NCBI GenBank assembly: GCA_041661045.1
Contig: JBAZVE010000001.1
Coordinates: forward strand, 690,001-722,000
DNA from: Candidatus Saccharimonadota bacterium
GTDB lineage: Bacteria; Patescibacteriota; Gracilibacteria; UBA1369; 2-02-FULL-48-14
Reading direction: 5' to 3'
DNA: 32,000 nucleotides
The position numbers were made by a program, and so were the translations under genes. How positions within the stretch are numbered: the stretch's first letter is position 1; the number at the start of each line of letters is the position of its first letter. The notes under the pieces are model-generated. The model did not search any database. It was not told where the DNA came from and worked only from the letters and a program-made list of their open reading frames with translations. Shown here in pieces: positions 2,568 to 17,081 of this stretch.

Positions 2568-2630
2568 GATTAGATCTTGCTATTTCGTGTATAAGTTGTT
2601 AGGTTTGCTTACTAATTTTATTGGCTTCGA

Positions 2631-2963: not shown

Positions 2964-2979
2964 CTCGTTGCGCTGATTT

Positions 2980-3567: not shown

Positions 3568-3685
3568 AAGATTTCGCAGTATGCGATATTCACTGGCTGT
3601 ATAATATCGCACGAAGTGCAGTGCAGCCAGTGAATATGGGTGTAGCGAGGTGCAACCGAGCGAAACCGCATACTGCGTGTTGCCA
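3564..3685 (-). repeat. attC-like site (B), left box degenerate
   Basis: L stems are cgcagtatgcg / cgcatactgcg, followed by -T-gttgcca. The P2 arm is cactggctg..cagccagtg with a ..gcacGAAgtgc.. loop. The left box acataag is degenerate and overlaps a start codon. Confidence 0.6.
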
Positions 3686-3705
3686 TAGAATAATTACGCC
3701 AATTT

Positions 3706-3714
3706 TGGTATAAT
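3706..3714 (+). promoter_or_regulatory. extended -10 promoter (TGgTATAAT) for cassette methyltransferase
   Basis: TG-n-TATAAT at 3706-3714, 18 nt upstream of the ATG at 3733. Confidence 0.5.
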
Positions 3715-3732
3715 GAGATAATTAAAATTAAA

Positions 3733-4254: not shown

Positions 4255-4280
4255 TTGAGCGTCCTGTCAAAATTATTCTA

Positions 4281-4300
4281 TGGCAAAGTGCGTGTTAAGT
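4281..4300 (-). repeat. minimal remnant attC-like site (C)
   Basis: tggcaaa-GTGC-g-T-gttaagt. Both R boxes and the bulge are present with no body. The left hexamer plus 9 more nt (4272-4286) are the exact reverse complement of 3680-3694, next to site B. Confidence 0.5.
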
Positions 4301-4380
4301 GATGTAATTTTTCTGGTTTAATCCTTTGATCTCTAAAAGAAATCACCTTTTAAAGGGAATAAAAATTTGATTTTCCGTCA

Positions 4381-4704
4381 TTATATGTCAATAACTTCAA
4401 CATGATCAGCAATTCCTAGTTCCCATCTTGGGTTAAAATTAGGATCTCCAAAAGTTGCCTGATATCTAGGATCAAGGTCTTCCTCTCCTTGAAAAACAGC
4501 TTGTCCGAGTGTCAAAACTACTAAATCATGTGCTGTGCCAAATACTTCCTCAACGGCAATGTCATATGCTCTTTCAGCACTAACTGGCCATTCTTGTTGT
4601 AATCTTTTGGCAACATTTGGAGCGTTATATCCATCCGTGCCGGCAATGACTTTCATTACGACTTCATCATGTTCACATACCGATACTATTCCTTGTGTAC
4701 CCAT
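4381..4704 (-). CDS. hypothetical protein (cassette ORF)
   Basis: 107-aa ORF, the only long ORF between sites C and D. No recognisable domain. Confidence 0.6.
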   Translation of the reverse strand: MGTQGIVSVCEHDEVVMKVIAGTDGYNAPNVAKRLQQEWPVSAERAYDIAVEEVFGTAHDLVVLTLGQAVFQGEEDLDPRYQATFGDPNFNPRWELGIADHVEVIDI

Positions 4705-4860
4705 GCAAGTGTTAGTTAAGTATTTAGTGGTGTACTGTAGGTTGGAACCGTCGACTCGTCAAGATTAAAATTTATTGTCTAATATGGTTCTATTACAGAA
4801 AATCAAATTTTCGTTTCTTTTTAAAAGTTGACGGGATGGAAAAAGAGAAAAATGTATTTT

Positions 4861-4935
4861 GCCTAATGTCCCTGCGTAGCCAACTTGGGTGAGGGCTTTT
4901 GTAGAAAAGCCCTCACCAGCTATGTAGTGTTGTCG
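4861..4935 (-). repeat. attC-like site (D), short form lacking P2
   Basis: gcctaat-GTCC-ctgcgtagc ... gctatgtag-T-gttgtcg. The body is caacTTGGGTGAG plus a perfect 13-bp hairpin ggtgagggctttt/aaaagccctcacc. The two L-stem mismatches are G.T on the plus strand. Confidence 0.7.
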
Positions 4936-4967
4936 GAAGTATCCAGCTCACTAACTTTTTCAAAACT

Positions 4968-5237
4968 TTAATTTGCTTCTTCGTATTTTTCTAAAAAATT
5001 ATGCATTCTTTTATATTTTTCGTGCACAACAACATCCTCTAGAATTCCTTCAGCTCTTGTCTTTAACAGAATTCGTAAATTTTGAATTATCTGTGGCTGT
5101 ATATTGCCTTCATTGTCTGTTCTAGGTTGTATTTTTGCAAAGACTTCTCCCAAACTAGTCTCACTTAAATGTTCAAGTGCGGCTGCTCTTAACTGAGTCG
5201 GCGTGATTTTTGATGGTGATGTTTCGCCTAGTTCCAT
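4968..5237 (-). CDS. hypothetical protein (cassette ORF)
   Basis: 89-aa ORF. Its last codons and stop lie inside the cassette's terminal inverted repeat. Confidence 0.6.
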   Translation of the reverse strand: MELGETSPSKITPTQLRAAALEHLSETSLGEVFAKIQPRTDNEGNIQPQIIQNLRILLKTRAEGILEDVVVHEKYKRMHNFLEKYEEAN

Positions 5238-5243
5238 TTTTAA

Positions 5244-5271
5244 ATTATATCATATATTTCAAATTTTGCAA
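5244..5271 (-). promoter_or_regulatory. sigma70-like promoter TTGCAA-N16-TATAAT, leaderless geometry
   Basis: On the minus strand the -35 TTGCAA is at 5266-5271 and the -10 TATAAT at 5244-5249. Only 6 nt separate the -10 from the ATG (5237). Confidence 0.5.
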
Positions 5272-5308
5272 ATTAAAGTTTTGAAAAAGAACCAATTCTG
5301 GATATTTC

Positions 5309-5445
5309 GTACAACGGCTGTGCGTTGGTGAAGTTGGACAGTAGTAAAATATACGAAGTGTGACTACTGGCCAACTTGGGTGAGGGCTTTATGGTTGAGC
5401 GAAGCCAGCCTAAAAAAAGACCGAACTGCTAACGCGCTGTTGTAC
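5309..5445 (-). repeat. attC-like site (E)
   Basis: gtacaac-GGCT-gtgcgttgg ... ctaacgcgc-T-gttgtac. P2 is aagttggacagtagt-AAAATAT-acGAAgt-..actactggccaactt, followed by TTGGGTGAG. It contains an exact GCGAAGC. Confidence 0.8.
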
Positions 5446-5492
5446 GATGAAGAAAAAAATGCGTCGCAATTAAAGCACAAATGAATGGCTTT

Positions 5493-5789
5493 CTAGAGGA
5501 GATAGTCAAGGTCAGTGACGAGACTGCCCGTAATGTTCCTAAGTGGTGCCCCCATTTCTGAAGAGGGGTATTTTTCTTGAAACTCAGATAGAGAAGCGTT
5601 TATGACAGGGCCATTTACTGTGAGAGCATATACCACAATGTCATTTTTTCTTCCCAAAATAACAACAGTTCCTCGAGTGCCAAGGTGATTTTTGCCAGTA
5701 AAAACATCTCCTCTTTGTGGGTTGCTCCAGATTTCGTGGGCAATATCTTGAGGAGTTTCTTCATTGCTGGACGCACATGACTCAGCCAT
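5493..5789 (-). CDS. hypothetical protein (cassette ORF)
   Basis: 98-aa ORF, the only long ORF between sites E and F. Confidence 0.6.
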   Translation of the reverse strand: MAESCASSNEETPQDIAHEIWSNPQRGDVFTGKNHLGTRGTVVILGRKNDIVVYALTVNGPVINASLSEFQEKYPSSEMGAPLRNITGSLVTDLDYLL

Positions 5790-5815
5790 TTTGTGATTTT
5801 TTAAATTGTCCTCTC

Positions 5816-5824
5816 ATTATAGCA
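5816..5824 (-). promoter_or_regulatory. extended -10 promoter (TGcTATAAT) for ORF 5493-5789
   Basis: The minus strand reads aTGcTATAATgagaggacaatttaaaaaatcacaaaATG. Confidence 0.45.
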
Positions 5825-5838
5825 TTTTTTCCTTTTTC

Positions 5839-5954
5839 GTACAACGGTCGCAGTATAGCTGAAGTTTATACATGGTAAAATGACCGAAAAGCCAACCAAG
5901 TATAAACTTGGGTGAGGGCTGATCTAGCCCGAACCAGCTATACTGCTGTTAGCT
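5839..5954 (-). repeat. attC-like site (F)
   Basis: gtacaac-GGTC-gcagtatagctg ... cagctatactgc-T-gttagct. It has a P2 with GGTAAAAT, then TTGGGTGAG and a gggct/agccc hairpin, then GAAC. Confidence 0.8.
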
Positions 5955-5962
5955 GATGTTTA

Positions 5963-6274
5963 CTAAATAGATATATCAGTTGGATTTTGTTCCGCATATC
6001 CAAATTTACCTAGGATGTGATTTGCAGCAATCCATAAATCAGAATAATCACCATTAACGATGGCGCTTGTTTCGTCTGGCGATAGATTAGTAACTCCAGT
6101 GGATGCAAAGTCTACTAAAATATCTGTGAGGATTGTATCCTCAGGATGTTCTCTGGCAACATTTAATAATGTGGCAGCGTCAGAGGACTCAGAATGCATC
6201 TTAATGATCTTTGCCAAACCCAAAACTACTTTTTCGTGGGCACTTCGCTTAACTGGTTCGTCATCTATACTCAT
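5963..6274 (-). CDS. hypothetical acidic protein (cassette ORF)
   Basis: 103-aa ORF between sites F and G. Confidence 0.6.
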   Translation of the reverse strand: MSIDDEPVKRSAHEKVVLGLAKIIKMHSESSDAATLLNVAREHPEDTILTDILVDFASTGVTNLSPDETSAIVNGDYSDLWIAANHILGKFGYAEQNPTDISI

Positions 6275-6282
6275 GTCAGTGC

Positions 6283-6309
6283 ATTATAATATATTTCGAT
6301 TGCATGCAA
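6283..6309 (-). promoter_or_regulatory. sigma70-like promoter TTGCAT-N15-TATAAT, near-leaderless
   Basis: On the minus strand the -10 TATAAT is at 6283-6288, 8 nt from the ATG at 6274. The -35 TTGCAT is at 6304-6309. The spacer is 1-2 nt short. Confidence 0.4.
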
Positions 6310-6317
6310 TAAATTTC

Positions 6318-6377
6318 AGCTAATGTTGGGAATGACTGAGCGAAGCGAAGGAATGAACCGCATAGTCATTGTTAGGC
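6318..6377 (-). repeat. attC-like site (G), 60-bp short form
   Basis: agctaat-GTTG..atgact-gaGCGAAGCGAAGgaatGAACc-gcatagtcat-T-gttaggc. It lacks P2 and keeps the GCGAAGC mini-hairpin and GAAC. Confidence 0.65.
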
Positions 6378-6396
6378 GATGTGAATTTTTCTCCAA

Positions 6397-6720
6397 TTAT
6401 TTAGTAGCTTCTTCTTCTTTTTCAAAAATCTTTGAAATCAATTCACGTACAAATGCTTTAGCTTGCTCTACGTCTAGTTCCTCAACATATCCGTCTTCAT
6501 CTAATTTACCATTAAGTACTCCAGCCCTAATTAAGCTTTCAAAAACAGCAAAATCATAGCTACCTGACCCATTAAATCTCTTACCATCAAAAATTCTTTC
6601 CGGATTATTTGTCCATGGGGCTACGGCAAGTTGACGGAGATATTCTCTAAGAGTAACTTCTTTTGCGTTATATGGTTCGTTGGGTTTAACACTGATGTCT
6701 AGAATTTCTTTGTGGTTCAT
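6397..6720 (-). CDS. hypothetical protein (cassette ORF)
   Basis: 107-aa ORF with a consensus promoter immediately upstream. Confidence 0.65.
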   Translation of the reverse strand: MNHKEILDISVKPNEPYNAKEVTLREYLRQLAVAPWTNNPERIFDGKRFNGSGSYDFAVFESLIRAGVLNGKLDEDGYVEELDVEQAKAFVRELISKIFEKEEEATK

Positions 6721-6739
6721 GGTTTTTGAAATAGAATTT

Positions 6740-6767
6740 ATTATATGTCAATCATAATATTTGTCAA
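6740..6767 (-). promoter_or_regulatory. consensus sigma70 promoter TTGACA-N16-TATAAT inside cassette
   Basis: The minus strand reads caacTTGACAaatattatgattgacaTATAATaaattctatttcaaaaaccATG. Confidence 0.65.
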
Positions 6768-6791
6768 GTTGAATGTGGGAAAATTCATTTC

Positions 6792-6897
6792 GCCTAATGT
6801 TCGTGAATAACCGAAGGTTGCTAATGGTAAAACATGCCGAAGGCGGACCGTTGGCAACTTTGGGCGAACGAAGTGAGCCGGTTATTCACTGTTGTAC
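6792..6897 (-). repeat. attC-like site (H)
   Basis: gcctaat-GTTC-gtgaataaccg ... cggttattcac-T-gttgtac. P2 is gttgctaatggt-AAAACAT-gccGAAggc-gg-accgttggcaac with two G.T pairs. It is followed by TTTGGGCGAA and cGAAg. The body is about 90% identical to site M. Confidence 0.85.
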
Positions 6898-6930
6898 GCT
6901 GTATTAAAATTTGATCGCGTTCAGCGAGCA

Positions 6931-6959
6931 TTGGAAGAGTGGCAATTTTTTGCTATAAT
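6931..6959 (+). promoter_or_regulatory. sigma70-like promoter TTGGAA-N17-TATAAT for inverted cassette ORF
   Basis: The -35 is at 6931-6936 and the -10 at 6954-6959. The -35 lies inside the cassette's terminal inverted repeat. Confidence 0.6.
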
Positions 6960-6982
6960 GTAAAGAATTAACTTTTTGTTCT

Positions 6983-7399
6983 ATGGCCATGGAAGGTCCT
7001 AATTACGACGATCCGATTGAGCAAGATAAGCAACACGCTTTGAATCAAATTAGAACTATTGGGCCAGAAAAACCAGTAGGGTATTTGCCAGTAGAAACCA
7101 TCACAGGTTATTGTGGTCAAAATTTTGATGTATTTGTAGCAGAATGTCGTCAGAGAGGTCACGAAACTCGTATATTCACGGGCGGAGGATGGCCTGGTTT
7201 TTCTGGCTCATTGTATGTATATGATAAAGTTTCTCTGCAAAATTTGCTCAATCGGAACCAAAGTATTCTGGAACAATCTGGTTGGCCACTGAATCCTGAT
7301 GAATTTGTAGCTAATCTTCATGTTTGGGTTCAAGAAGGAACTCCTATTTTTAAGTTGATTGCTCAAGCATTTGGAGATAAGTTCAGCGAAAGTCTTTAA
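6983..7399 (+). CDS. hypothetical protein (cassette ORF, inverted relative to array)
   Basis: 138-aa ORF, the only long ORF between sites H and I, with its own promoter. Confidence 0.65.
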   Translation: MAMEGPNYDDPIEQDKQHALNQIRTIGPEKPVGYLPVETITGYCGQNFDVFVAECRQRGHETRIFTGGGWPGFSGSLYVYDKVSLQNLLNRNQSILEQSGWPLNPDEFVANLHVWVQEGTPIFKLIAQAFGDKFSESL

Positions 7400-7447
7400 G
7401 CAAAAATTGCCACTCTTTCAATCCTGTTAGGGAAATTTTAGTATGGC

Positions 7448-7569
7448 GTACAACGTCCGAGACTATGAGAAGTCGGACAGGTGTAAAATACGCTGAAGGC
7501 GTACACCTGTCCAATTTGGGTGAACGACTGATCAAAGAGAAGGAGTGAACCTCATAGTCTCTGTTGTGT
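7448..7569 (-). repeat. attC-like site (I)
   Basis: gtacaac-GTCC-gagactatgag ... ctcatagtctc-T-gttgtgt. P2 is gtcggacaggtgt-AAAATA-cgcTGAAGgcg-t-acacctgtccaat, followed by TTGGGTGAA and ..GAAC. Confidence 0.85.
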
Positions 7570-7598
7570 GATGTTTTGCTGCAGTTACCCAGCGTCTA

Positions 7599-7627
7599 TA
7601 GACAAAATATATGTAAAGTGTTATAAT
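7599..7627 (+). promoter_or_regulatory. sigma70-like promoter TAGACA-N17-TGtTATAAT for inverted cassette ORF
   Basis: The -35 is at 7599-7604. The extended -10 has TG at 7619-7620 and TATAAT at 7622-7627. Confidence 0.6.
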
Positions 7628-7652
7628 TCTTACTTATCCCTAAAGCTTTTAC

Positions 7653-8027
7653 ATGAAGTCAACTACCGATTCAGATCAACCACATTTTAATGGACTGGAG
7701 ATATCAGAGGTGCCCAGAAAAATAAGAGTACGAACTACAACATATCCAAATGGGCTTGTTGGTGTTTTGTCTAGGAATGGCAATTCTGTGACATTTAAGA
7801 CATTAGAAGATGAGAATTACCCCGCTATACAGCAAGCAGGTGGTTATTGCGATGCTGTTTGGGAGTATCAATTTGAATTAGATACTAATGGACAGCCCAT
7901 TCGTACGGTAGAGAAAACGCTTGTAGTAAAGGAAGGTCAGTGGGCACCTTTGGACCCTAGCTTTCCCGAGCATATATCGGAGGGGCCTAATTATATGTGG
8001 AGTGTAATTACTGACACATTGTCATAA
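7653..8027 (+). CDS. hypothetical protein (cassette ORF, inverted relative to array)
   Basis: 124-aa ORF between sites I and J, with its own promoter. Confidence 0.65.
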   Translation: MKSTTDSDQPHFNGLEISEVPRKIRVRTTTYPNGLVGVLSRNGNSVTFKTLEDENYPAIQQAGGYCDAVWEYQFELDTNGQPIRTVEKTLVVKEGQWAPLDPSFPEHISEGPNYMWSVITDTLS

Positions 8028-8045
8028 AAGCTGCAGCAAAATTTC

Positions 8046-8162
8046 ACACAATGTTCGAGACTATGTAAAGTTTGCCAGTGATAAAATATGCTGAAGGCGG
8101 ATCACTGGCAAATTTGAGCGAAACGAGCAAAGCGAAGTGGAGCTACATAGTCTCTGTTGTGA
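8046..8162 (-). repeat. attC-like site (J)
   Basis: acacaat-GTTC-gagactatgta ... tacatagtctc-T-gttgtga. P2 is gtttgccagtgat-AAAATAT-gcTGAAggc-gg-atcactggcaaat, followed by TTTGAGCGAA and aGCGAAGt. Confidence 0.85.
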
Positions 8163-8180
8163 GAAGTTGCTTTGAACTTT

Positions 8181-8408
8181 TTATTTTGCTTTCGATTTGC
8201 TCATTTGATGTACGATGAGCGAAACAATCAGGCCAATAACTCCACCAACAATCATGCTAACGAAAACAACGGGCACAACTGGATTTGAGGATTCTAAATC
8301 TTGAGAGACAATGAATTGGATAGTGCTATAGACGGTGAGAGCTGAGACTAGCCCACAGAGGAGGCCTGTTGCAATGCCTGTTGTATAGAGATGTTTTGGA
8401 TGATGCAT
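8181..8408 (-). CDS. small two-TM membrane protein (paralog of 10213-10440)
   Basis: 75 aa, MHHPKHLY..two hydrophobic helices..SKSKAK. About 70% identical by eye to the ORF at 10213-10440. Confidence 0.7.
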   Translation of the reverse strand: MHHPKHLYTTGIATGLLCGLVSALTVYSTIQFIVSQDLESSNPVVPVVFVSMIVGGVIGLIVSLIVHQMSKSKAK

Positions 8409-8475
8409 AAGTGTAAAGTAAATTATTACCCTGATTGTTTAGACTCTTTTATATTATATGGTTCAAAGCAATTTC

Positions 8476-8581
8476 GTACAACGGTCGCGCATAAACGAAG
8501 AAGACCAGCGGTAGAATATCCCGTAGGGTTACCGCTGGTCAATTTGTGCGAACGAAGTGAGCTGTTTATGCGCTGTTGTAC
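8476..8581 (-). repeat. attC-like site (K)
   Basis: gtacaac-GGTC-gcgcataaac ... gtttatgcgc-T-gttgtac. P2 is gaccagcggt-AGAATAT-cccGTAggg-tt-accgctggtc, followed by TTTGTGCGAA and cGAAg. Confidence 0.85.
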
Positions 8582-8598
8582 GATGCCGTGAAAAATGG

Positions 8599-8841
8599 CT
8601 ACTCTTTTACTGGAAGACAGGTAATTGTACCTAATTCACCACTAACCCAATTGCCATCTAAATCATATAGTCTTGTGATAGTAGATGTTCCGTCAGGATT
8701 GTTTTCCAAAACTTCTCCATGAAATTGTTTGGTAGGGTCATAGGGTTTAAGGCCAAAGTTACTCATCCAGCTAAATTGTGAAAAAGTAAATCTAGGCAAT
8801 TCTTTTGCTTCTTCAGGGGAAAGGGTACGTGGATTCTCCAT
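8599..8841 (-). CDS. hypothetical protein (cassette ORF)
   Basis: 80-aa ORF between sites K and L. Confidence 0.6.
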   Translation of the reverse strand: MENPRTLSPEEAKELPRFTFSQFSWMSNFGLKPYDPTKQFHGEVLENNPDGTSTITRLYDLDGNWVSGELGTITCLPVKE

Positions 8842-8897
8842 ATTTCATGGTGATTAGGAATGTAAACTACTCTAATTATAACATTTTTCACGGTTTC

Positions 8898-9036
8898 GTA
8901 CAACGTTCCGCACTATGCGAACTTGTGCAGGTGTAAAATAGCCGAAGGCGGACACCTGTACAAGTTGGGTGAAGGTTTTTCAGGCTGCGCAAAGCCAGCC
9001 GATCAGAAAACCTGAACCGCATAGTGCGTGTTGTAC
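8898..9036 (-). repeat. attC-like site (L), near-identical body to P
   Basis: gtacaac-GTTC-cgcactatgcg ... cgcatagtgcg-T-gttgtac. P2 is cttgtgcaggtgt-AAAATA-gccGAAggc-gg-acacctgtacaag with one G.T pair. It is followed by TTGGGTGAA, P3 aggtttt../..aaaacct and GAAC. Confidence 0.85.
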
Positions 9037-9062
9037 GCTGTAATAAAAAATGCGATGACAAA

Positions 9063-9296
9063 CTATTTATCTTTCTTTTCTTCAACTCCACCAACCCATT
9101 GAACAACAGGCTTTGCCACTTCTGGCGTAGTTAGAGGTTCGAAAACTACTTCCCCAGCTTTTTTTGCTGTATCACCTGCTTGTGAAACAACTGGAGGTTG
9201 TAAACCATCCCAAGTAACAGCAGGAGATTCTGGCTTGGCAGGTGGCAAAGCCTCCCATGCAGTTACAGGAGATTCTGTTTTTTTTGTGTCAGACAT
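9063..9296 (-). CDS. hypothetical Pro/Val-rich small protein (cassette ORF)
   Basis: 77-aa ORF between sites L and M. Low-complexity composition. Confidence 0.55.
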   Translation of the reverse strand: MSDTKKTESPVTAWEALPPAKPESPAVTWDGLQPPVVSQAGDTAKKAGEVVFEPLTTPEVAKPVVQWVGGVEEKKDK

Positions 9297-9352
9297 GTAA
9301 ATGTTTGTTAAATTATGGTCTATCAGATGATTATAGCATTTTTTGTTATGGC

Positions 9353-9458
9353 GTACAATGTCCGTGAATAACCGAAGGTTGCTAATGGTAAAATATGCCG
9401 AAGGCCAACCATTAGCAACTTTGAGCGAACGAAGTGAGCCGGTTATTCACTGTTAGGC
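9353..9458 (-). repeat. attC-like site (M), H family
   Basis: gtacaat-GTCC-gtgaataaccg ... cggttattcac-T-gttaggc. The P2 stem gttgctaatggt/accattagcaac is perfectly paired. Confidence 0.85.
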
Positions 9459-9472
9459 GTTGGTTAGGGGTG

Positions 9473-10003
9473 CTAACGAATTGATGAAAAAATTTCTTCG
9501 ACTAAACCAGCTTCTGCGACTGGGGGCTGAAAAAATATTTGGCAATAATAATCCTGAGATTTTTCTTCTGACCATTCAGCAAGACTGAGACCGATGTTGC
9601 CATTTCCAACATTATCTTGAGTGCCAAATATTGAGTATTTTACTTTTACTAATTCGTCTTGTTTCTCAAAAGTGCGAGTGTCGGATTGAAGTATTTCAGC
9701 CTCCATGCCGCCTTGCCAGTCGCAGTCGATCATCATTGTTTTCTCCTGTTTTGCGTCGTAAAACTGTGTATAAACTCCTCCTGAATCATAAGTCTCATCA
9801 GCATAAGTCCAAGATGAAGGGTAATCTAATTCATAATTAATGCTACCGAATGTGAAGGAGGTAAGCAGGGCTTCTGGGCTTTCGACTGCGACGACATCAT
9901 CTGTTTCAATGGTAATACCGGAATTTATAGCAGTATCATCTACTTGTGACGAACAGGCGGCAAAAGAAACTGTGATAGCGAATAGGAGTAGAAATTTTTT
10001 CAT
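9473..10003 (-). CDS. putative lipoprotein, unknown function (cassette ORF)
   Basis: 176 aa. The signal peptide has a lipobox-like MKKFLLLFAITVSFAAC. Confidence 0.7.
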   Translation of the reverse strand: MKKFLLLFAITVSFAACSSQVDDTAINSGITIETDDVVAVESPEALLTSFTFGSINYELDYPSSWTYADETYDSGGVYTQFYDAKQEKTMMIDCDWQGGMEAEILQSDTRTFEKQDELVKVKYSIFGTQDNVGNGNIGLSLAEWSEEKSQDYYCQIFFQPPVAEAGLVEEIFSSIR

Positions 10004-10078
10004 ATTTACTTGTTAAATGATACTTGAATCATATCGGAAGTTGTTGTTTTTACAAAACTTCTCGTACCTCTAACTTTC

Positions 10079-10192
10079 GCCTAACGTTCGCGCATATGCA
10101 AAGTGCGAGCGCGGTAAAATGTTAGCACGCAGTGCTACACCGCGCGAGCATTTGGGCGAGGCCTCAGCCAAGCTGCATATGCGCTGTTGTAC
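10079..10192 (-). repeat. attC-like site (N)
   Basis: gcctaac-GTTC-gcgcatatgca ... tgcatatgcgc-T-gttgtac. P2 is gtgcgagcgcggt-AAAATGT-tagcacGCAgtgcta-c-accgcgcgagcat, followed by TTGGGCGAG. Confidence 0.85.
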
Positions 10193-10212
10193 GGTGTTGC
10201 TTTGAGCAAACA

Positions 10213-10440
10213 CTATTTGGTTTTTGATTTACTAACTTGATGTACTGTGAAAGACACGATCGAGCCAATAATGCCTCCAACTAAAAGGCTTATAACTACA
10301 ACTGCAATAACTGGATTTGTTGTTTCTAAGTCTTGTGAAGCAATATATTGCATTGTGCTGTATACGGTTAGTGCAGAAATAAGACCGCAGAGGACACCTG
10401 TTACTAGACCTGTCACATAAAGATGTTTTGGATGATGCAT
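10213..10440 (-). CDS. small two-TM membrane protein (paralog of 8181-8408)
   Basis: 75 aa, MHHPKHLY...SKSKTK. Same length and architecture as the ORF at 8181-8408. Confidence 0.7.
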   Translation of the reverse strand: MHHPKHLYVTGLVTGVLCGLISALTVYSTMQYIASQDLETTNPVIAVVVISLLVGGIIGSIVSFTVHQVSKSKTK

Positions 10441-10501
10441 ATTGATGAAATTAATTATTGGCTTGATTGAATATGATTATTGTACTGCTCAAAGCAATTT
10501 C

Positions 10502-10625
10502 GTATAACGGCCGAGAATATGTGAAGTTTTGTAGCGGTACAATTTGCCCGAAGGGCTCACCACTACAAAACTTGGGTGAGCGACTGAGTGGAACGAAGGA
10601 GAGAACCACATATTCTCTGTTAAGT
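10502..10625 (-). repeat. attC-like site (O)
   Basis: gtataac-GGCC-gagaatatgtg ... cacatattctc-T-gttaagt. P2 is gttttgtagcggt-ACAATTT-gcccGAAgggc-tc-accactacaaaac, followed by TTGGGTGAG and ..GAAC. Confidence 0.85.
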
Positions 10626-10641
10626 GGTGTTGTGCTGATTT

Positions 10642-11154
10642 TTACTTACAATATCCAGTAGACTTGTCATAAGTCTTACCATCGGAGCAGCTGCAACGGG
10701 CATTTAACCAGTCGCCATCCGTTTCCGTACAGTTATTCCCTACGACATCAGTCCAAAAATAATATGCCCCTTCTGGGTTCGGCAAGCCAACAGACACAGC
10801 AAAAGCGGCTCCACCTGGACCGCCGAATGTCGTCTGGCAGTAACCTGTTTTTTTGTCGTACATCATCTCTTGCGTTTGCCTTTCTTCTAGCGGACATTCA
10901 CAAACACTGTCGCTAAATGAACCGCCACTTAATTCACAGTTATATCCAACTAATTCGTCCCATTCATTTGATGAAGTGACTTCAGTTATAGTTTCAGGTT
11001 CGTTTAGTTCTTGCTCTTGGACGGAAACTGATGGCGACTCTTGCGATTCATTCGTTTGCCAAAAGTAAACTCCTCCACCACCAATCAATGCAGCGATAAC
11101 TGCAACGAGTACCATTTTGCTTGTTTGAGACATAAATGTTTTGGTTAAATGCAA
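10642..11154 (-). CDS. Cys-rich membrane-anchored secreted protein, unknown function (cassette ORF)
   Basis: 170 aa. The N-terminal TM helix ends GGGGVYFWQ, followed by an acidic linker. The C-terminal domain has about 10 Cys and a repeated KxTGYC motif. The start may be the internal MSQTSK. Confidence 0.65.
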   Translation of the reverse strand: MHLTKTFMSQTSKMVLVAVIAALIGGGGVYFWQTNESQESPSVSVQEQELNEPETITEVTSSNEWDELVGYNCELSGGSFSDSVCECPLEERQTQEMMYDKKTGYCQTTFGGPGGAAFAVSVGLPNPEGAYYFWTDVVGNNCTETDGDWLNARCSCSDGKTYDKSTGYCK

Positions 11155-11185
11155 ATTTAGCTTACGGGAAAATCAGCGCAATGTC

Positions 11186-11323
11186 ACTTAACGTCCCGCA
11201 CTATGCGAGCTTGTGCAGGTGTAAAATAGCCGAAGGCGGACACCTGTACAAGTTGGGTGAAGGTTTTCAGGCTGCGCGAAGCCAGCCCATCAGAAAACCT
11301 GAACCGCATAGTGCGTGTTATAT
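11186..11323 (-). repeat. attC-like site (P), near-identical body to L
   Basis: acttaac-GTCC-cgcactatgcg ... cgcatagtgcg-T-gttatat. The body matches L almost base for base and contains an exact GCGAAGC. Both R-box hexamers differ from those of L. Confidence 0.85.
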
Positions 11324-11327
11324 GGTT

Positions 11328-11720
11328 TTATTTGCCATCTTCCAAGACGCAATCTGCTTCAATTTCAATCAGCCATTCTGGATTTATAAATCCAGACACT
11401 TCTGCGAAAGTACAGGCGGGCTGTATGTTAGAGAAAAATTCTCCGTGAGCTTTTGCAGCATCTTTCCACGTTTTCATATCTCTTAACAAGATACGTGTGC
11501 GAATTACATCTTCAAGCGAACCGCCGGCTTGCTCGATAACATTTTTGATAATCGTTAGGCAACGTTTCGATTGTTCATATACATTGCCTGGAGAATGAAC
11601 TGAACCATCTTCCGCAATTGGCGCAGTTCCAGTGACAGCGATAAAGTTGCCGATTCTTACAGCCCGCGAAAACCCAATTTCTTTTTCTAACGGCTGATTG
11701 TAAGTGATGTTTTTTCTCAT
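11328..11720 (-). CDS. ridA: RidA/YjgF/UK114 family protein (cassette ORF)
   Basis: 130 aa. FSRAVRIGNFIAVTGTAP...VYEQSKRCLTIIKNVIEQAGGSLEDVIRTRILL...IEIEADC is the typical RidA family pattern. Confidence 0.85.
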   Translation of the reverse strand: MRKNITYNQPLEKEIGFSRAVRIGNFIAVTGTAPIAEDGSVHSPGNVYEQSKRCLTIIKNVIEQAGGSLEDVIRTRILLRDMKTWKDAAKAHGEFFSNIQPACTFAEVSGFINPEWLIEIEADCVLEDGK

Positions 11721-11757
11721 AAATGTTTTTTAAGAGGTAGTGCAGGCAAATAATGCC

Positions 11758-11883
11758 ATATAACGGCTGGGTATAGGCGATGTTGTTGCGCGGTAAAATA
11801 TGCCACGAAGTGGCTCACCGCGCAACAATATGGGAGAACGAAGAAGCGAAGCGACTGAGTGAACCGCCTATACCCTGTTACAT
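11758..11883 (-). repeat. attC-like site (Q)
   Basis: atataac-GGCT-gggtataggcg ... cgcctataccc-T-gttacat. P2 is gttgttgcgcggt-AAAATAT-gccacGAAgtggc-tc-accgcgcaacaat. It is followed by an exact GCGAAGC and GAAC. Confidence 0.85.
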
Positions 11884-12004
11884 GATGTGCATATTTTCCT
11901 TAATTTCTTGAAAAGGAATTCTTCTTTAAAAGAGACTGATTTTGTTTTCTGTTTTGGGCGAGGGCAGAGGGGATTAAGGGGTGAATGCCCGAGCCCAAAA
12001 CTCC

Positions 12005-12832
12005 TCATTCCACGTCTCCTTGCGCTATCCTATTTTGTGCTTCTTGCATTAATTTCTCTGCTTCCTTTTTCATGAGATCATTAATTCTGTCTACTGCATC
12101 CATACTTCCGTTATATCTTTCCATTACTTTCTTATCCCTGAAGTATTTCAGAGTTGTTCCCTCGTATTTCCATACTGTCCAAAGACGATTTTTCATCAGC
12201 TTGAGGTTGTAAACTTTTGCTTCGGCAATGGAGAGGGCATTTTCAATCTTGAGTGAATTTACGAATGTCTCAATCATGGTTATGAATCCGCCAAAATTTT
12301 CGACGAAAGCTGTTCGTTGAGCTGGCGGTCTCATTCGTTCGGGTGTTGCCATTCTCTCATTGCGATCCAGCAACCTTTCAAAGTCATATCGAAATTGTTT
12401 AATATTGCCGTTTGCTGATCTTACCAAGTAATCAGTGATTAAAATTTTGTTGTGAACATAATAACTTTTGAGTCTCATTTTGATCAGATCTTCATCAAAG
12501 TAAATGGCAATGGTTGCTGGGAAATTAGTCTCTTGGATAGCATAAAAATTTGGGTCGGTTACTACTTGAACTTGCTCCACAATTGTTTTTGCTCTGGCAA
12601 TAAAATCTTCAAGCTGACTGACTGCGACAAGTAAATGACTTAATGTTTGAGAAAAAGCTATCTCTGTCCGCCTGATTGCTTCTTTTCTGTTTGATCTCTT
12701 TTGTAGGCACCCTTTAACTAAAAATCCAATAACTGAGAGAATGATTGCTAAAAATGGACCTAGGGCAGAGCCAATTAGCGTTTGCCATTTTTCGATAAAT
12801 TCAGTTGATGTGATTAATTTTAGTGTTTCCAT
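12005..12832 (-). CDS. hypothetical membrane-anchored protein (third gene of three-gene cassette)
   Basis: 275 aa with one TM helix near the N-terminus and a helical/coiled C-terminal part. No recognisable domain. Confidence 0.65.
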   Translation of the reverse strand: METLKLITSTEFIEKWQTLIGSALGPFLAIILSVIGFLVKGCLQKRSNRKEAIRRTEIAFSQTLSHLLVAVSQLEDFIARAKTIVEQVQVVTDPNFYAIQETNFPATIAIYFDEDLIKMRLKSYYVHNKILITDYLVRSANGNIKQFRYDFERLLDRNERMATPERMRPPAQRTAFVENFGGFITMIETFVNSLKIENALSIAEAKVYNLKLMKNRLWTVWKYEGTTLKYFRDKKVMERYNGSMDAVDRINDLMKKEAEKLMQEAQNRIAQGDVE

Positions 12833-12872
12833 TGCTTGTGGATGATACTCTTTTTACCCTATAAAAAACACC

Positions 12873-13508
12873 TTAATTGTATGAGGGAACAGAATGTTCC
12901 CTACAATCATAGTTGCCTTTTATGTTGGCGTTATAGTAACTGCCAAAGGAGGATGCTTTTTGCAGTTCTGCCCAAATTGACTTTGGTGTTTCGCAATAGT
13001 GATAATATTTTCCATTAATGTTCATAATCAAGTAACTGTTGCTTTTGTCGTACCATGCGCCTTCGATGAAAGAGCTTTTTGATGTATTTAAGTATTCAAA
13101 ATATGAACTATCGAGATTAACGGAATCTTTTCGATACTGAACAGCAACGTAATTCTGTTTTGATTGTGAATCTTTTTCGTACTTTTCAAGGCAATCAAAA
13201 AGAATATCGGTCATTAACGATTCTTCTTCGTCTTCAAGCTCGAAGGTCGGATATTCGCCTTGAGAATTTACGAAAGAACCATCTGGTTGAGTTATGTATC
13301 CCTGAGAATTCAGAAATTCATTTCCTTTTTGGGCGGCTTCAGAAAGACAAACGTCATAGAAAGGTGAAGATGTTATCTCCTCAATGGTATTTTTTGATGA
13401 ATTGTCTTGAATATCTGGCCTGAGAACGTAAAACATGAAGCCACCAATAAGAAGTGTCCAAAAGGCAACTATGATTATTATTGGTTTTTTGGAGGAATTA
13501 GTTTTCAT
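12873..13508 (-). CDS. hypothetical membrane-anchored secreted protein (second gene of three-gene cassette)
   Basis: 211 aa with an N-terminal TM helix (PIIIIVAFWTLLIGGFMFYVL) and a soluble domain. Confidence 0.65.
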   Translation of the reverse strand: MKTNSSKKPIIIIVAFWTLLIGGFMFYVLRPDIQDNSSKNTIEEITSSPFYDVCLSEAAQKGNEFLNSQGYITQPDGSFVNSQGEYPTFELEDEEESLMTDILFDCLEKYEKDSQSKQNYVAVQYRKDSVNLDSSYFEYLNTSKSSFIEGAWYDKSNSYLIMNINGKYYHYCETPKSIWAELQKASSFGSYYNANIKGNYDCREHSVPSYN

Positions 13509-13517
13509 AAGTCTGTA

Positions 13518-13781
13518 TCACGTTAAATTAGTAATAATGCCGTAAAGTATAGAAAAAATAATGAAGGAAAAAATAATTCCAAGCTGAATCAGTATGCTTT
13601 TTTTGAGTGGAAATTTGTATATTGCTTCCAAAATTATCCCCAAGGCCAATATCAACGTTAAAACTACTAGCCAAATTATAGAAAAATTAAAATGCCACAT
13701 TAACAGCTCTAACAATATGTAAACAAAAATAATGCCTTGGTTTGTTCTATTATTAAATGTTTTTGTTAGAGCGTTTTTCAT
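13518..13781 (-). CDS. hypothetical small integral membrane protein (first gene of three-gene cassette)
   Basis: 87 aa with 2-3 hydrophobic helices. It lies 9 nt upstream of the next ORF. Confidence 0.55.
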   Translation of the reverse strand: MKNALTKTFNNRTNQGIIFVYILLELLMWHFNFSIIWLVVLTLILALGIILEAIYKFPLKKSILIQLGIIFSFIIFSILYGIITNLT

Positions 13782-13914
13782 GGTTTGTATTATATAGTAA
13801 ATTGTTTTCGGAGCGAAGCGGAGAAAACTCCTTATTTCCCCTCTATAAAACAGAAAACAAAATCAGATCTCATTTTTAAGAATTGGCTTTAGCCAAAAGG
13901 AAAATATGCATTTC

Positions 13915-14036
13915 ATGTAACGTCCGTGTGTTGGCGAAGTTTGGACGTGGTAAAATTAGCACGAAGTGCGTACCACGGCCAAACTTGTGAGAGGCTTTTC
14001 TGGAGGAAAGGCCGAACCGCTAACACACTGTTATGT
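13915..14036 (-). repeat. attC-like site (R), attC of the integrase-proximal cassette
   Basis: atgtaac-GTCC-gtgtgttggcg ... cgctaacacac-T-gttatgt. P2 is gtttggacgtggt-AAAATTA-gcacGAAgtgc-gt-accacggccaaac, followed by TTGTGAGAG, a P3 hairpin and GAAC. Confidence 0.85.
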
Positions 14037-14104
14037 GCTGTTTCATTTTTCATTTGCGACTGAAGGGAGCAAATGTGAGCAAAGTGAACAGAGAAATGCT
14101 TTTA

Positions 14105-14473
14105 CTACTTCCCTTCGATGAGTTCTAGTAAACGACTGCAATATTCTTCAACCGCTTCAGCACCACTAGCTGTTATTGTATCAAAATTCTGTCTAAGTTC
14201 ATTCATGATGGAATCAAAGGCGGCGATAGCCTCAGGGTTGCTTAATTGCATAGCCAGATCTGCTTGATCTTCGTTATATGTGCTACGCAAATACTCTTCG
14301 TAATTACGGAGAAATCTGCGAGGGTTTCCACCTGTATCTTGCCCACTAAAGGCATATTGGATGGCCCCCATCATATTGCGTGCCTGACGATCGAGTTTAC
14401 AGCCTCGAGAAAAATTATTTCTAATAATGTCTAATACATGATCTCTTTGGCTGTCGCCGCCTTCGATACGCAT
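14105..14473 (-). CDS. hypothetical protein (first, integrase-proximal cassette ORF)
   Basis: 122-aa ORF between site R and the attI-like junction. Confidence 0.6.
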   Translation of the reverse strand: MRIEGGDSQRDHVLDIIRNNFSRGCKLDRQARNMMGAIQYAFSGQDTGGNPRRFLRNYEEYLRSTYNEDQADLAMQLSNPEAIAAFDSIMNELRQNFDTITASGAEAVEEYCSRLLELIEGK

Positions 14474-14523
14474 ATTTTTTGGATTAAGTGATTAAAAGCA
14501 TTTCTCTAAAAAATGGAATGGCA

Positions 14524-14760
14524 CATAACTCGTTTCTAACGGAAAACAGTGCGGCTAGCAAGGGGGAATGGGGTGTTTTGGTGAAATGGGGGAGGAGGAG
14601 TGAAGAAACGAGTTGTGGGGAGTGGGGTGACAAAAAGGTGAATTCTGTAAGGAATTTGTCAGGTTTTTGTCATGAATTTGTCAGAAGGGCGGGGTGGGAG
14701 TGGGAAAAATTCAGGAAAGTTTAAGGAAAAATTCAGAAAAAATTCAGGATTTTTTCAGGT
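14524..14760 (-). promoter_or_regulatory. attI-like junction and intI/cassette intergenic control region
   Basis: acataa|c at 14524-14530 is the exact complement of the site R right box gttatgt, and the cassette inverted repeat ends there. Further right lie 2x GAATTTGTCAG (14652, 14674; 22 bp apart), 3x AAAAATTCAGR (14705, 14727, 14738) and a tract of (R)TGGGG runs (14562-14704). Confidence 0.6.
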
Positions 14761-14805
14761 TTGGGCTATAGAGTGGGGGTATTCCTTACTTTTTTACTTT
14801 TACTT

Positions 14806-15618
14806 ATGGAACTCAAAGAAGCTTTGGCCTTAATGGAAAGAGAGCTTCGGCTGAGGCATTACAGCTCTAAAACGGTGAAAAATTACTTAAGATGTGTGGA
14901 GCTTTATTTTTCGGGGAAGAAAAGTTTGGCGTATCGGGAGGAGGAGCTCAAAGGGTTTTTGTTTGGGAAGCTTGAAGCTGGGGCGGCGCCGGAGACGGTG
15001 AATCTTTATCTTTGTGCGGTGAAGTTTTTTTATAAACAATGTTTGCACTTTAAGGGTATTGTGAAAGTTCGTTTTGCGCGAAGAAATGTGCGCTTGCCGG
15101 TGGTGCTTTCGAGGGAGGAGATCCTTAAGATTTTAGAATTTATTCCCAACACAAAGCACCGTTATTTGGTGGCGCTGGCGTATGGGGCGGGGCTGCGCGT
15201 GAGTGAGGTGGTTCGGTTGAGGGTTGCAGATCTTGATTTTGCACGGAAGCTGCTTGTGGTGCGAGAAGGGAAGGGTGGCAAAGCGAGGGTGACGCTTTTG
15301 CCCGAAAATTTGAGGGAAGAGCTGAAGAGTTTTGTTGTGGGGAAAGTGGCGATGGATTTTGTGTTTGAGAGTGAACGGGGTGGGGCTTTGAGTACACGGT
15401 CGGCTCAAAAGGTTTTTGCGGTGGCTTTGGAGAAAACGGGACTGCAGAAAGAGGCTTCGTTCCATTCTTTGCGGCACAGTTTTGCGACGCATTGTTTGGA
15501 AAATGGAGTGGACAGTCGCTTCATTCAAAAACTGCTTGGACACAGTGCCATTCGTACTACAGAAAGGTATACGCAAGTGAGTCAGGTGAGTTTGGCGGGA
15601 ATTCGGAGTCCACTTTAG
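14806..15618 (+). CDS. IntI-like tyrosine recombinase lacking the IntI-specific insertion
   Basis: About 270 aa from the ATG at 14806 (the track starts at TTG 14761). Blocks shared with IntI1 are RLPVVLSxEE, YGAGLRVSE, LRVADLDF, VREGKGGKAR, HSLRHSFATH, LLGHS and ERYTQV, plus the C-terminal GIRSPL. Only about 58 aa separate GKGGKAR from HSLRH, against about 105 in IntI1. Confidence 0.85.
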   Translation: MELKEALALMERELRLRHYSSKTVKNYLRCVELYFSGKKSLAYREEELKGFLFGKLEAGAAPETVNLYLCAVKFFYKQCLHFKGIVKVRFARRNVRLPVVLSREEILKILEFIPNTKHRYLVALAYGAGLRVSEVVRLRVADLDFARKLLVVREGKGGKARVTLLPENLREELKSFVVGKVAMDFVFESERGGALSTRSAQKVFAVALEKTGLQKEASFHSLRHSFATHCLENGVDSRFIQKLLGHSAIRTTERYTQVSQVSLAGIRSPL

Positions 15619-15650: not shown

Positions 15651-17081
15651 ATGATTCTTCCACTGTTATCGGCGCTGAGTTTTTTCATTGGGATTTTGGT
15701 GGCGGCGTTTGGGGAGTGGAATCTTTTGCGTGGTGAGATGGCTTGGATTTTTGTGATCGCAATGGGCTGCCTTTTTAAGAAAAGATTTTTGGGTGTTTTG
15801 ATTTTAGCCTTTTTGTTCGGGGTTTTGAGGATGAATGTGTACGAGCAGAGCTTGGGGGAGGCTTCGATTGTGGCTTTGGAGGAGGGCGTTTTTGAGGGGC
15901 GGATTGTGTCTGAAGTGGACACGCGGATTGATCACCAAAACATTATAGTGGACACGGAGTATGGAAGGATTTTGGCGGAGCTGTCCTTGTATGAGTTGGT
16001 GCACTATGGAGATTTTGTGGAACTGCGGGGCCAATTGGAAGTTCCGGAGCAGGGGAGTTCGTATGCGCGGTATTTGTTTCGAAATAAAGTTCTTTACACA
16101 ATGAACTCTGCGCGGGTGGAAGTCTTAAAGGGTGCGGGGACTTCGTTGCGGGGGTCGCTGTATGCATTTAAAGGGGTGGTGCAAAAAAGAATCAACCGGC
16201 TTTATTTTGAGCCGGAGGCGAGTTTGGTTTCCGGCTTATTGTTGGGAAGCCGAAAGGGGATGAGCGAGGAGCTCACGGCGGATTTTCAGGCGGTGGGGCT
16301 CACGCACATTGTGGCGGTTTCCGGGTACAATATTAGCCTGGTGATTGCGTTTATCTTTTGGAGTTTTTCTTTTTTGTTGATAAAAAAACGAGTGGTTTTG
16401 AGTGTGCTCATGGTGGCTCTTTTTGTCCTTTTTGTGGGAGCTTCGGCGGCGGCGGTGCGGGCGGGAATCATGGGGAGTTTGACGGCGTGGGGGCTTTACA
16501 TCGGGCGCAAGAGTCAGGCGTTTTTTGCTTTGCTGTGGAGCGCCGTGCTCATGACGATATGGAATCCGGCGATTCTCCCTTTTGATATTGGCTTTCAACT
16601 TTCCTTTGCCTCGACCCTTGGCATTTTGGTCTTTGTTCCCATCTTGGAAAAAGCTTTTCCGCTCCAAAAGATCAAGTCAAAGCTTTTGAAGGAGGCTTTG
16701 TTTTTGACCCTTAGCGCGCAGTTGGCGACAACCCCTTTTATCGCCTTTTATTTTGGACGATTTTCCATTATTTCCCTGCTTGCAAATTTGCTTGTTGCTC
16801 CGCTTTTGCCCTTCTCGATGCTGTTTTCGGCACTGTCTTTGATTGGAGGAGAACTGTTTAGCCTTTTGGCCGGAGTCTATTTAAAAGCGGTGATCGGTGT
16901 GGTGCGTTTGCTCGCAAAAATTCCCCATGCGGACATTGCGATGCCGCTGAGTTTGGAGTTTTTTATTTTCTTTTTGTGCGTGCTTGTTTTTTCGACTCTT
17001 CTTTTTTATAGATCCAAATTGGCCCGAGCTTTTGGTCTCGAATCCTGGGGAGTTTTTTCCAAGGCTCTAAACCCTCAATAA
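15651..17081 (+). CDS. comEC: ComEC/Rec2 family DNA internalisation channel (short form, no metallo-beta-lactamase domain)
   Basis: 476 aa, polytopic. LVSGLLLGSRKGMSEELTADFQAVGLTHIVAVSGYNISLV is the ComEC competence-domain signature. Confidence 0.85.
   Translation: MILPLLSALSFFIGILVAAFGEWNLLRGEMAWIFVIAMGCLFKKRFLGVLILAFLFGVLRMNVYEQSLGEASIVALEEGVFEGRIVSEVDTRIDHQNIIVDTEYGRILAELSLYELVHYGDFVELRGQLEVPEQGSSYARYLFRNKVLYTMNSARVEVLKGAGTSLRGSLYAFKGVVQKRINRLYFEPEASLVSGLLLGSRKGMSEELTADFQAVGLTHIVAVSGYNISLVIAFIFWSFSFLLIKKRVVLSVLMVALFVLFVGASAAAVRAGIMGSLTAWGLYIGRKSQAFFALLWSAVLMTIWNPAILPFDIGFQLSFASTLGILVFVPILEKAFPLQKIKSKLLKEALFLTLSAQLATTPFIAFYFGRFSIISLLANLLVAPLLPFSMLFSALSLIGGELFSLLAGVYLKAVIGVVRLLAKIPHADIAMPLSLEFFIFFLCVLVFSTLLFYRSKLARAFGLESWGVFSKALNPQ

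Follow-up and report, generated by a model that had tools for sequence, protein, structure and literature searches.

What does an integron look like when the recombinase beside it lacks the domain by which integron integrases are recognized? This question is raised by a stretch of DNA of 32,000 nt (hereafter the window; contig JBAZVE010000001.1, positions 690,001 to 722,000) from a Candidatus Gracilibacteria genome, a member of the Candidate Phyla Radiation (CPR) that was assembled from a metagenome. From ~1645 to 14036 the window contains small open reading frames (ORFs) spaced by repeats of ~60–140 nt, and the array borders on the gene of a 270-aa tyrosine recombinase. We consider the region very probably a sedentary chromosomal integron in a CPR genome, run probably by the adjacent short recombinase. 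The repeats have the properties of attC sites, namely an imperfect palindrome, terminal RYYYAAC and GTTRRRY boxes, L boxes, a variable loop, and conservation of structure over sequence. The plus strand of the array corresponds to the “bottom” (folding) strand of the attC sites, and the cassette ORFs lie mostly on the minus strand, pointing away from the integrase.

Detection of the attC sites

Scanning the window against Rfam identified a tRNA-Glu only, with no attC-like region at any family threshold, and a covariance model of attC was therefore built from 13 repeats of the window. The 32-kb window was scanned with this model and 16 sites were detected, all on the plus strand and all left of position 14040; no match was obtained elsewhere in the window or on the minus strand. 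Three more sites, short or degraded, were placed by eye, and the coordinates of bulged or short sites were set by hand. The array and its sites F to R are as follows.

1645–14529, plus strand: whole cassette array, ~19 attC-type sites and a half site near 1645, boxes tabulated
5839–5954, plus strand: attC F, left box GTACAAC, right box GTTAGCT
6318–6377, plus strand: attC G, short, left box AGCTAAT, right box GTTAGGC, model score 17.3 bits
6792–6897, plus strand: attC H, left box GCCTAAT, right box GTTGTAC, core ~93% identical to that of M
7448–7569, plus strand: attC I, left box GTACAAC, right box GTTGTGT
8046–8162, plus strand: attC J, left box ACACAAT, right box GTTGTGA
8476–8581, plus strand: attC K, left box GTACAAC, right box GTTGTAC
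8898–9036, plus strand: attC L, left box GTACAAC, right box GTTGTAC, core 96% identical to that of P, ORFs unrelated
9353–9458, plus strand: attC M, left box GTACAAT, right box GTTAGGC
10079–10192, plus strand: attC N, left box GCCTAAC, right box GTTGTAC
10502–10625, plus strand: attC O, left box GTATAAC, right box GTTAAGT
11186–11323, plus strand: attC P, left box ACTTAAC, right box GTTATAT
11758–11883, plus strand: attC Q, left box ATATAAC, right box GTTACAT
13915–14036, plus strand: attC R, site of the integrase-proximal cassette, left box ATGTAAC, right box GTTATGT

Right boxes pair with the left box of the next site

The original prediction stated that the right box of each site is complementary to the left box of the next site on the far side of the ORF, and not to its own left box, and listed eight such pairs, all of which are present in the sequence. 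We tabulated the junctions from S6→F to R→attI (n = 14) and counted a match when the four variable box bases were complementary. With GTT and AAC invariant, variation is confined to four of the seven box positions, and what covaries inside the box is thus a 4-mer; the pairing nevertheless runs well past the box. The rule applied to 12 of the 14 junctions and failed at J→K and N→O, which had not been listed. That a site’s own boxes disagree was true for most sites, the own left box being matched in three of 14 cases. Shuffling the partners gave a mean of 2.5 perfect junctions, and none of 20,000 shuffles reached 12.

At J→K, GTTGTGA faces GTACAAC with two mismatches, and at N→O, GTTGTAC faces GTATAAC with one. 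In both cases the extended ends past the box still pair, and the failures therefore look like point mutations in old cassettes. The two cassettes are paralogues, each encoding a 75-aa membrane protein, with ~70% nucleotide identity. Four perfect junctions had not been listed before (S6→F, H→I, K→L, and L→M), and in each the box is GTTGTAC, the most frequent one. Because three of these four are also self-matching, they are uninformative, while H→I, with GCCTAAT as its own left box, does discriminate. Among the nine junctions with a right box other than GTAC, eight were perfect. Over the whole array (19 junctions from position 2523 on) 13 junctions were perfect, the distal sites left of 5300 being degraded. 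In comparison loci from other genomes (designated by L-numbers), 37 junctions from 14 loci comprised 19 perfect ones and 30 with at most one mismatch, with three own-site matches and a shuffle mean of 2.2. The array of a cultured spirochaete showed the covariation of the R boxes in five of five junctions.

Pairing of this kind could also be a by-product of tandem duplication, or arise by chance among a few common box variants. GTTGTAC and GTACAAC are indeed common, four of the 12 perfect junctions having the consensus right box and three of these being self-matching, and the J→K and N→O cassettes are paralogous. However, chance does not account for eight perfect junctions out of nine with non-consensus boxes, nor for an observed count that no shuffle reached. 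In addition, the pairing past the box depends on the partner: true partners matched at 9.8 of 14 extension positions and non-partners at 4.25 of 14 (p = 7e-10). The cassette ORFs are unrelated in sequence and Pfam content, and we saw no sign of the tandem duplication that the original prediction had named as evidence that would speak against it. With the permutation and non-partner controls refuting both origins of the pairing, we regard their probability as negligible.

Box covariation as such is the textbook rule for cassette boundaries in integrons and is already known: on the bottom strand the R′ box, RYYYAAC, pairs with the R″ box, GTTRRRY, and cleavage by the integrase takes place in AAC (PMC5027507; PMC3053210). 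The pattern had been read as a direct footprint of cassette shuffling. Cassette shuffling is borne out, but the pattern is the standard definition of a cassette boundary and hence not new.

Seven of the 19 left boxes end in AAT instead of AAC (2523, 2928, 4861, 6318, 6792, 8046, and 9353), giving a T-G pair at the presumed exchange position. The T is common to the related cores H, M, and S2, whose outer six bases differ, and AAT boxes are also present in L005, L019, and L021.

The attC cores fold as conserved hairpins

The cores between the boxes fold as hairpins that are kept among the sites, with 95% of the cells paired and compensatory changes in 29 of 38 pairs; all shifted-register controls fell to 29–45% paired. 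Summed over 13 sites, the folding energy was −353 kcal/mol for the plus strand vs. −320 kcal/mol for the minus strand, and an invariant G-T pair is located on the plus strand next to AAC. A folding bias in the same direction has been reported for the attC bottom strand (PMC5027507). Recombination may here, too, proceed on the single bottom strand. Where the R helix passes into the L helix, the 5′ arm has a 3-nt bulge, which is the sole asymmetry.

Cassette ends pair over more than the boxes

The ends of a cassette pair over ~22–25 bp rather than 7 bp, and some cassettes have repeats of ~45–100 bp. Usually nine matches are followed by a conserved 2-nt mismatch and by 9–14 further matches; the conserved 11-nt arms, TTTC-RYYYAAC and GTTRRRY-GATG, are followed by a cassette-specific extension. 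In length, 11-nt arms such as TTTC-RYYYAAC equal Xer arms. At least 10 of 14 extension positions matched in 15 of 37 junctions from other CPR loci, vs. 0.75% of the non-partner comparisons, and in a control of five class 1 cassettes the ends paired over 7–12 bp only. Two cassettes of the window are listed here.

11877–13921: Q→R cassette, 2 kb, with three ORFs (275, 211, and 87 aa), the 211-aa product with a KTSC domain
14030–14529, minus strand: ORF module of the first cassette, ORF at 14105–14473 (122 aa), with a homologue in L053 between two attC sites

The Q→R cassette has terminal inverted repeats of ~100 bp (11877–12008 and 13776–13921) with the core motif TG(T/C)ACAT(A)TTTTCCTT. These ends are kept at 72–91% around different cargo of 0.5–2.7 kb in at least 10 other CPR loci (L012, L007, L041, L037, L051, L053, L040, L004, L039, and L050), and they look like a reusable “end module” or a small mobile element inside cassettes. 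In the first cassette, GTTATGTGC..TTTCATTTTT pairs with AAAAATGGAA..GCACATAAC, and AGAGAAATGCTTTTA forms a second block. Its ends are 86–92% identical to those in L053, and the ORF protein is 34% identical.

An insert of ~39 nt with the hairpin CATTTGC...GCAAATG (14052–14090) splits the first cassette’s left terminal repeat; the right repeat lacks this insert, and in the L053 homologue it is kept despite the 34% protein identity. Further to the left, a methyltransferase cassette (3679–4300, ORF on the plus strand) is bounded by a perfect terminal repeat of 16 bp, TTGCCATAGAATAATT. After this cassette comes an attC remnant of 20 nt, TGGCAAA-GTGCGT-GTTAAGT, as if the core had been deleted between the boxes.

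Movement of cassettes and position of the exchange

The proposed mechanism is as follows. On the plus strand a cassette would run from the C of RYYYAA|C through the hairpin core and GTTRRRY to the ORF and the RYYYAA of the next box. Upon excision as a circle its two ends would join and re-form one complete attC, so that the right box of site n − 1 would complement the left box of site n and not its own; the outer six bases of a left box would belong to the neighboring cassette and complement the R″ of that cassette across the ORF. The terminal repeats would add an outer stem in the circle and place the exchange point in the middle of a long hairpin. Strand exchange would occur within or beside the invariant AAC, new or re-inserted cassettes would enter at attI (14528|14529) beside the integrase gene, and the reaction would probably be catalyzed by the 270-aa tyrosine recombinase next to the array.

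Two other genomes contain duplicated cassettes that bear on this scheme. The array of L065, a Gracilibacteria assembly, and that of L009, a single-cell genome of Patescibacteria, each contain one cassette block in two copies with 100% identity, one internal and the other beside the integrase. The internal copy is followed by an attC core and the integrase-proximal copy by attI-side sequence. The homology of the two copies starts at ..TAAC, with the left boxes GCCTAAC/ACATAAC in L065 and GTATAAC/ATCTAAC in L009, and ends at ..CTAAC in both. Judged from these sequences, the duplicates identify the integrase-proximal junction as the site of insertion and show recent activity of such systems. The same cassettes in other contexts thus have their breakpoints in the AAC triplets, as had been predicted for relatives. 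The first cassette of the window also recurs in L053 between two attC sites, the homology breaking exactly at GTTATGT and ACATAAC. It was the only homologue found when 25 ORFs of the window were searched against 81 loci by tblastn, so that there is little sharing of cassettes across genomes to exploit. In a blastn comparison of the window with the closest complete genome (L081) the cores matched but the cassettes did not.

The prediction of discrete cassettes that site-specific recombination has joined within the R box, attI being the last junction, is supported by these data. The switch of partner had been placed after the sixth base of the box. Exchange within or near AAC agrees with our results, but the single bond 6|7 is over-precise: box positions 5–8 (A, A, C/T, G) are without informative variation and covariation therefore cannot fix one bond, and the L065 and L009 duplicates place the exchange between positions 3|4 and 7|8 and no finer. 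By analogy with IntI, exchange at the 6|7 bond is presumed. We also considered the T at the seventh base as a mark of this bond, but it gives weak support, as it tracks the H/M/S2 core family and the I and J cores differ there.

The attI site

The following features were annotated between the last cassette and the integrase gene.

14523–14529, plus strand: attI junction box ACATAAC, with the putative exchange bond at 14528|14529
14524–14617: attI palindrome, CATAAC-TCGTTTCT, 66 nt, AGAAACGA-GTTGTG (= GAAACGA-GTTGTG)
14643–14757: two sets of direct repeats with 11-bp spacing, three copies like TTTGTCAG and four copies like GAAAAATTCAG

The last box had been placed at 14524–14530 and its AA|C bond at 14529/14530; both are shifted by one position, to 14523–14529 and 14528|14529. 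Directly at this junction the sequence AAC|TCGTTTC is found in the window, at the same place in L081 (CP064962), in L019, and in other loci; in all, this motif is kept in the window and nine loci, ~100–280 bp upstream of the integrase. The distance from AACTCGTTTC to the integrase gene downstream of it is ~100–180 bp in eight loci and ~280 bp in the window. The palindrome resembles an attC-like R box with a 7-bp stem; it is kept in L081 and has a 22-nt spacing in L019 and L039. From its sequence attI looks like a minimal attC, and it would be the insertion point in the window itself. The repeats with 11-bp spacing sit between attI and the integrase start, their two blocks are partly inverted to each other, and L081 carries a similar repeat, GAATTCAGGGATTTGTCAGAAAA; they may be accessory or regulatory binding sites. 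The cassettes themselves carry leaders of ~45–60 nt.

Linkage of the recombinase to attC sites in other genomes

Homologues of the recombinase from CPR genomes were counted when the locus had at least 1 kb of upstream sequence (n = 36). Matches to the attC model were found upstream and on the same strand in 32 of these 36 loci, which include Peregrinibacteria, Saccharibacteria, Nomurabacteria, Uhrbacteria, Dojkabacteria, Wolfebacteria, and others. Among 80 homologue loci, the contig ended within 700 bp of the gene on the upstream side in 34 and on the downstream side in three. Upstream contig ends are expected where assemblies break at a repeat array, and assembled CPR genomes probably lose such arrays systematically. 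L081, the closest complete genome, encodes an integrase with 67% identity and has seven attC sites upstream, and its downstream genes differ. The cultured spirochaete Brucepastera parasyntrophica RmG11 (L069) has an integrase with 41% identity, also without the insertions of IntI1; its attC sites match the covariance model of the window, and its cassettes have terminal repeats of ~18–22 bp.

The L081 array is interrupted by insertion-sequence genes (rve, DDE_Tnp_1, and Y1_Tnp) at 1721–4442 and 7157–9262, and one of its cassettes encodes a HicA toxin. Maribacter, a Bacteroidales assembly, and Kaistella (L072, L071, and L080) encode recombinases of ~270 aa with 37–39% identity, each with one weak attC-model match upstream (E 0.003–0.05). 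These Bacteroidota matches could be chance, or the short-integrase type could reach further.

The adjacent recombinase

14806–15618, plus strand: tyrosine recombinase, 270 aa, divergent from the cassettes, IntI-like without the IntI-specific insertions

The protein matches the Pfam family PF00589 (4.6e-39) and has a complete catalytic set (R131, K156, H220, R223, H246, and Y255). Its best NCBIfam match is the integron integrase TIGR02249, its best match in the PDB by sequence and by fold is 2a3v (VchIntIA), with XerA structures next, and it shares a C-terminal IRSPL motif with IntI1. The Xer family thresholds were not reached (XerC 160.7 vs. 335, XerD 142.6 vs. 329.6). The predicted structure (mean pLDDT, predicted local distance difference test, 88) has only a short hairpin at the insertion site, between H167–177 and H197–211. 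The contacts of IntI1 to extrahelical bases are made by K219, Y220, W229, P242, H250, and H251 (PMC3053210), and the missing insertions include the segments with these residues (alpha-I2 and beta-4,5). Going by its sequence, the adjacent recombinase is not a canonical IntI.

Several points weigh against an integron run by this protein. Its scores are under every curated family cut-off that we tried, including that for IntI (194.6, cut-off 265) and that for XerA (190.4, cut-off 220). The alignment to VchIntIA falls into two pieces, with 21 residues vs. 64 in VchIntIA, and in the alignment to IntI1 three insertions of 8, 23, and 11 aa are absent from the recombinase. The L stem of the attC sites has no extrahelical bases, helix 2 being 100% paired without bulges, which is in keeping with a recombinase that lacks the contacting insertions. 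IntegronFinder calls an IntI by the additional domain, and this IntI-specific domain was not found in the recombinase; the domain was described as needed for IntI activity by Messier and Roy (2001), as cited in PMC9668308. A sigma-70 consensus promoter was not found in 14000–14900, a consensus from which CPR promoters may differ. Finally, most near-identical cores share no flanking sequence, as described in the next section.

The array might instead be an orphan attC cluster (cluster of attC sites lacking an integrase, CALIN), its cassettes moved by a canonical IntI that has since been lost or is encoded elsewhere; the 270-aa protein would then be a housekeeping Xer-type dimer resolvase, adjacent by chance or by old association. 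The lack of the IntI insertions and an archaeal XerA score almost equal to the IntI score are in line with this explanation. The family is also near-universal in CPR (6,334 matches at E ≤ 1e-20, not all of them CPR), and a published classification describes a “Cand” subgroup from candidate phyla as Xer-related, with an assumed Xer-like role (PMC8138268). On the other hand, attC sites lie directly upstream in the same geometry in 32 of 36 CPR loci despite differing downstream genes, a conserved attI motif abuts the recombinase gene, and contig ends are asymmetric, on the upstream side of the gene. Moreover, identical cassette copies sit exactly at the integrase-proximal junction in two genomes, and the Xer cut-offs were widely missed. 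A housekeeping Xer is hard to reconcile with the linkage data and the duplicates at attI, and we consider it improbable. An integron in which the adjacent recombinase probably acts as the integrase remains the reading that we prefer.

Sharing of cores between cassettes

Near-identical cores were defined by at least 85% identity, which gave 18 pairs. In 15 of them neither flank is shared and the homology stops exactly at AAC/GTT, as for L/P and H/M in the window and for N and L053 across genomes (the N core is 93% identical to the L053 core at 2238–2359, and the boxes differ on both sides). A core that travels with its ORF is therefore not sufficient as the only explanation. In the remaining three pairs the right flank is 100% identical and the left flank is different, which is the canonical linkage of core and ORF. 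Sharing of the core alone possibly results from gene conversion, from repeated cassette formation on one attC template, or from exchange at both R half-sites. Either of the first two would be expected to produce it, and formation on one template is the common assumption for Vibrio-type arrays. Exchange at both ends of the core was not adopted, in view of the three canonical pairs and of the remaining pairs being equally explained by gene conversion or templated formation.

Alternatively, the mobile unit could be the ORF module, a small element with terminal inverted repeats. It would enter an existing palindromic repeat between its GTT and AAC, either in a transposition-like manner or by double exchange, and would then assort independently of the cores. 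Such a unit would fit the pairing of the cassette ends over 22–25 bp and up to ~100 bp, the 15 core pairs with no common flank (cross-genome pairs included), the first cassette with ends far better kept than its ORF, and the Q→R ends kept around differing cargo. However, no transposase domain was found in any cassette ORF and no target-site duplication, the flanks of the unit being the invariant G and C of the attC core and not duplications. The L065 and L009 duplicates run from AA|C to AA|C, with the core together with the ORF module, the three canonical pairs show the usual linkage, and gene conversion or a single attC template also predicts the sharing of cores alone. We therefore hold an ORF module as the mobile unit to be very unlikely, and cassettes that comprise core and ORF remain the preferred unit.

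Comparison with known integrons and Xer recombinases

The array resembles the Vibrio cholerae superintegron with its V. cholerae repeats (VCR attC sites), in its length, its chromosomal location, its small ORFs, most of them without a known function, and its single family of related attC sites. As in sedentary integrons, the AAC/GTT triplets are kept, R″ complements the first bases of its own cassette, attI lies beside a divergent tyrosine recombinase gene, and the bottom strand folds better. Unlike in sedentary integrons, the integrase lacks alpha-I2 and the beta-4,5 insertions, the L stem has no extrahelical bases and the 3-nt bulge on the 5′ arm as sole asymmetry, attI is palindromic, and the host is a CPR bacterium. 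The end complementarity of at least 22–25 bp also differs from the 7–12 bp of the five class 1 cassettes.

As for archaeal integrons (Ghaly et al., 2022; PMC9668308), the hosts are metagenome-assembled and outside the classical range, but archaeal IntIs keep the IntI-specific additional domain (PMC9668308), which the protein described here lacks. Two Spirochaetota IntIs, distinct from typical ones, form the sister clade of the archaeal IntIs (PMC9668308). The spirochaete L069 agrees with the window in an integrase without IntI1 insertions, the same attC model, and the covariation of the R boxes. It differs in being an “inverted” integron, with the array downstream of the integrase and the attC sites on the opposite strand, and in an N-terminal extension of the protein of ~115 aa.

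In length (~270 aa), domain layout, and the absence of an insertion in the catalytic domain, the recombinase is similar to the simple Xer, XerA, and “Cand” recombinases (PMC8138268). Unlike Xer acting at a single 28-bp dif site of the replication terminus, its gene lies beside an attC array and attI, and unlike for Xer proteins, IntI models and structure score best and all Xer cut-offs are unmet. The integron insertion has been described as “not fully conserved” within the integron-like group (PMC8138268).

Integrons or attC arrays in CPR/Patescibacteria were not found described in the searchable full-text literature, which leaves subscription-only papers outside. Within this literature, the covariation was already known and an integron variant without the hallmark domain is the new part. 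Tentatively, and with more doubt than confidence, we propose that a widespread integron lineage, largely missed by standard tools, occurs in CPR and in at least one spirochaete; it would be marked by the absence of the insertions and of extrahelical bases and by exchange in the middle of a much lengthened hairpin. The lineage may be either an ancestral “proto-integron”, in which recombination of folded attC sites predates the hallmark domain, or a variant that chooses the strand by the 3-nt bulge and G-T pairs; the insertions were either never present in the short-integrase lineage or lost from it.

Integrons are currently defined and detected by a domain that is absent here, and such arrays would be counted as orphan attC clusters or overlooked altogether. 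Should the short recombinase be the working enzyme, there would be an uncounted system of cassette capture in a very large share of bacterial diversity that is poorly known, and the view that the additional domain and extrahelical bases are required would need qualifying. The locus lends itself to testing how strands are chosen and sites recognized without those features.

Neighboring genes

The genes beyond the integrase include those for ComEC, tRNA-Glu, YidC, and acetate kinase. Some Gracilibacteria use UGA as a glycine codon; this alternative code was unneeded for the window, as the long housekeeping ORFs are unbroken under table 11. The gene for a ComEC-like DNA-uptake channel (15651–17081) starts 33 bp past the integrase stop, a suggestive position, as the system is believed to work on single-stranded DNA. 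This neighborhood is not kept in L081, where pyrimidine-synthesis genes are found at that place.

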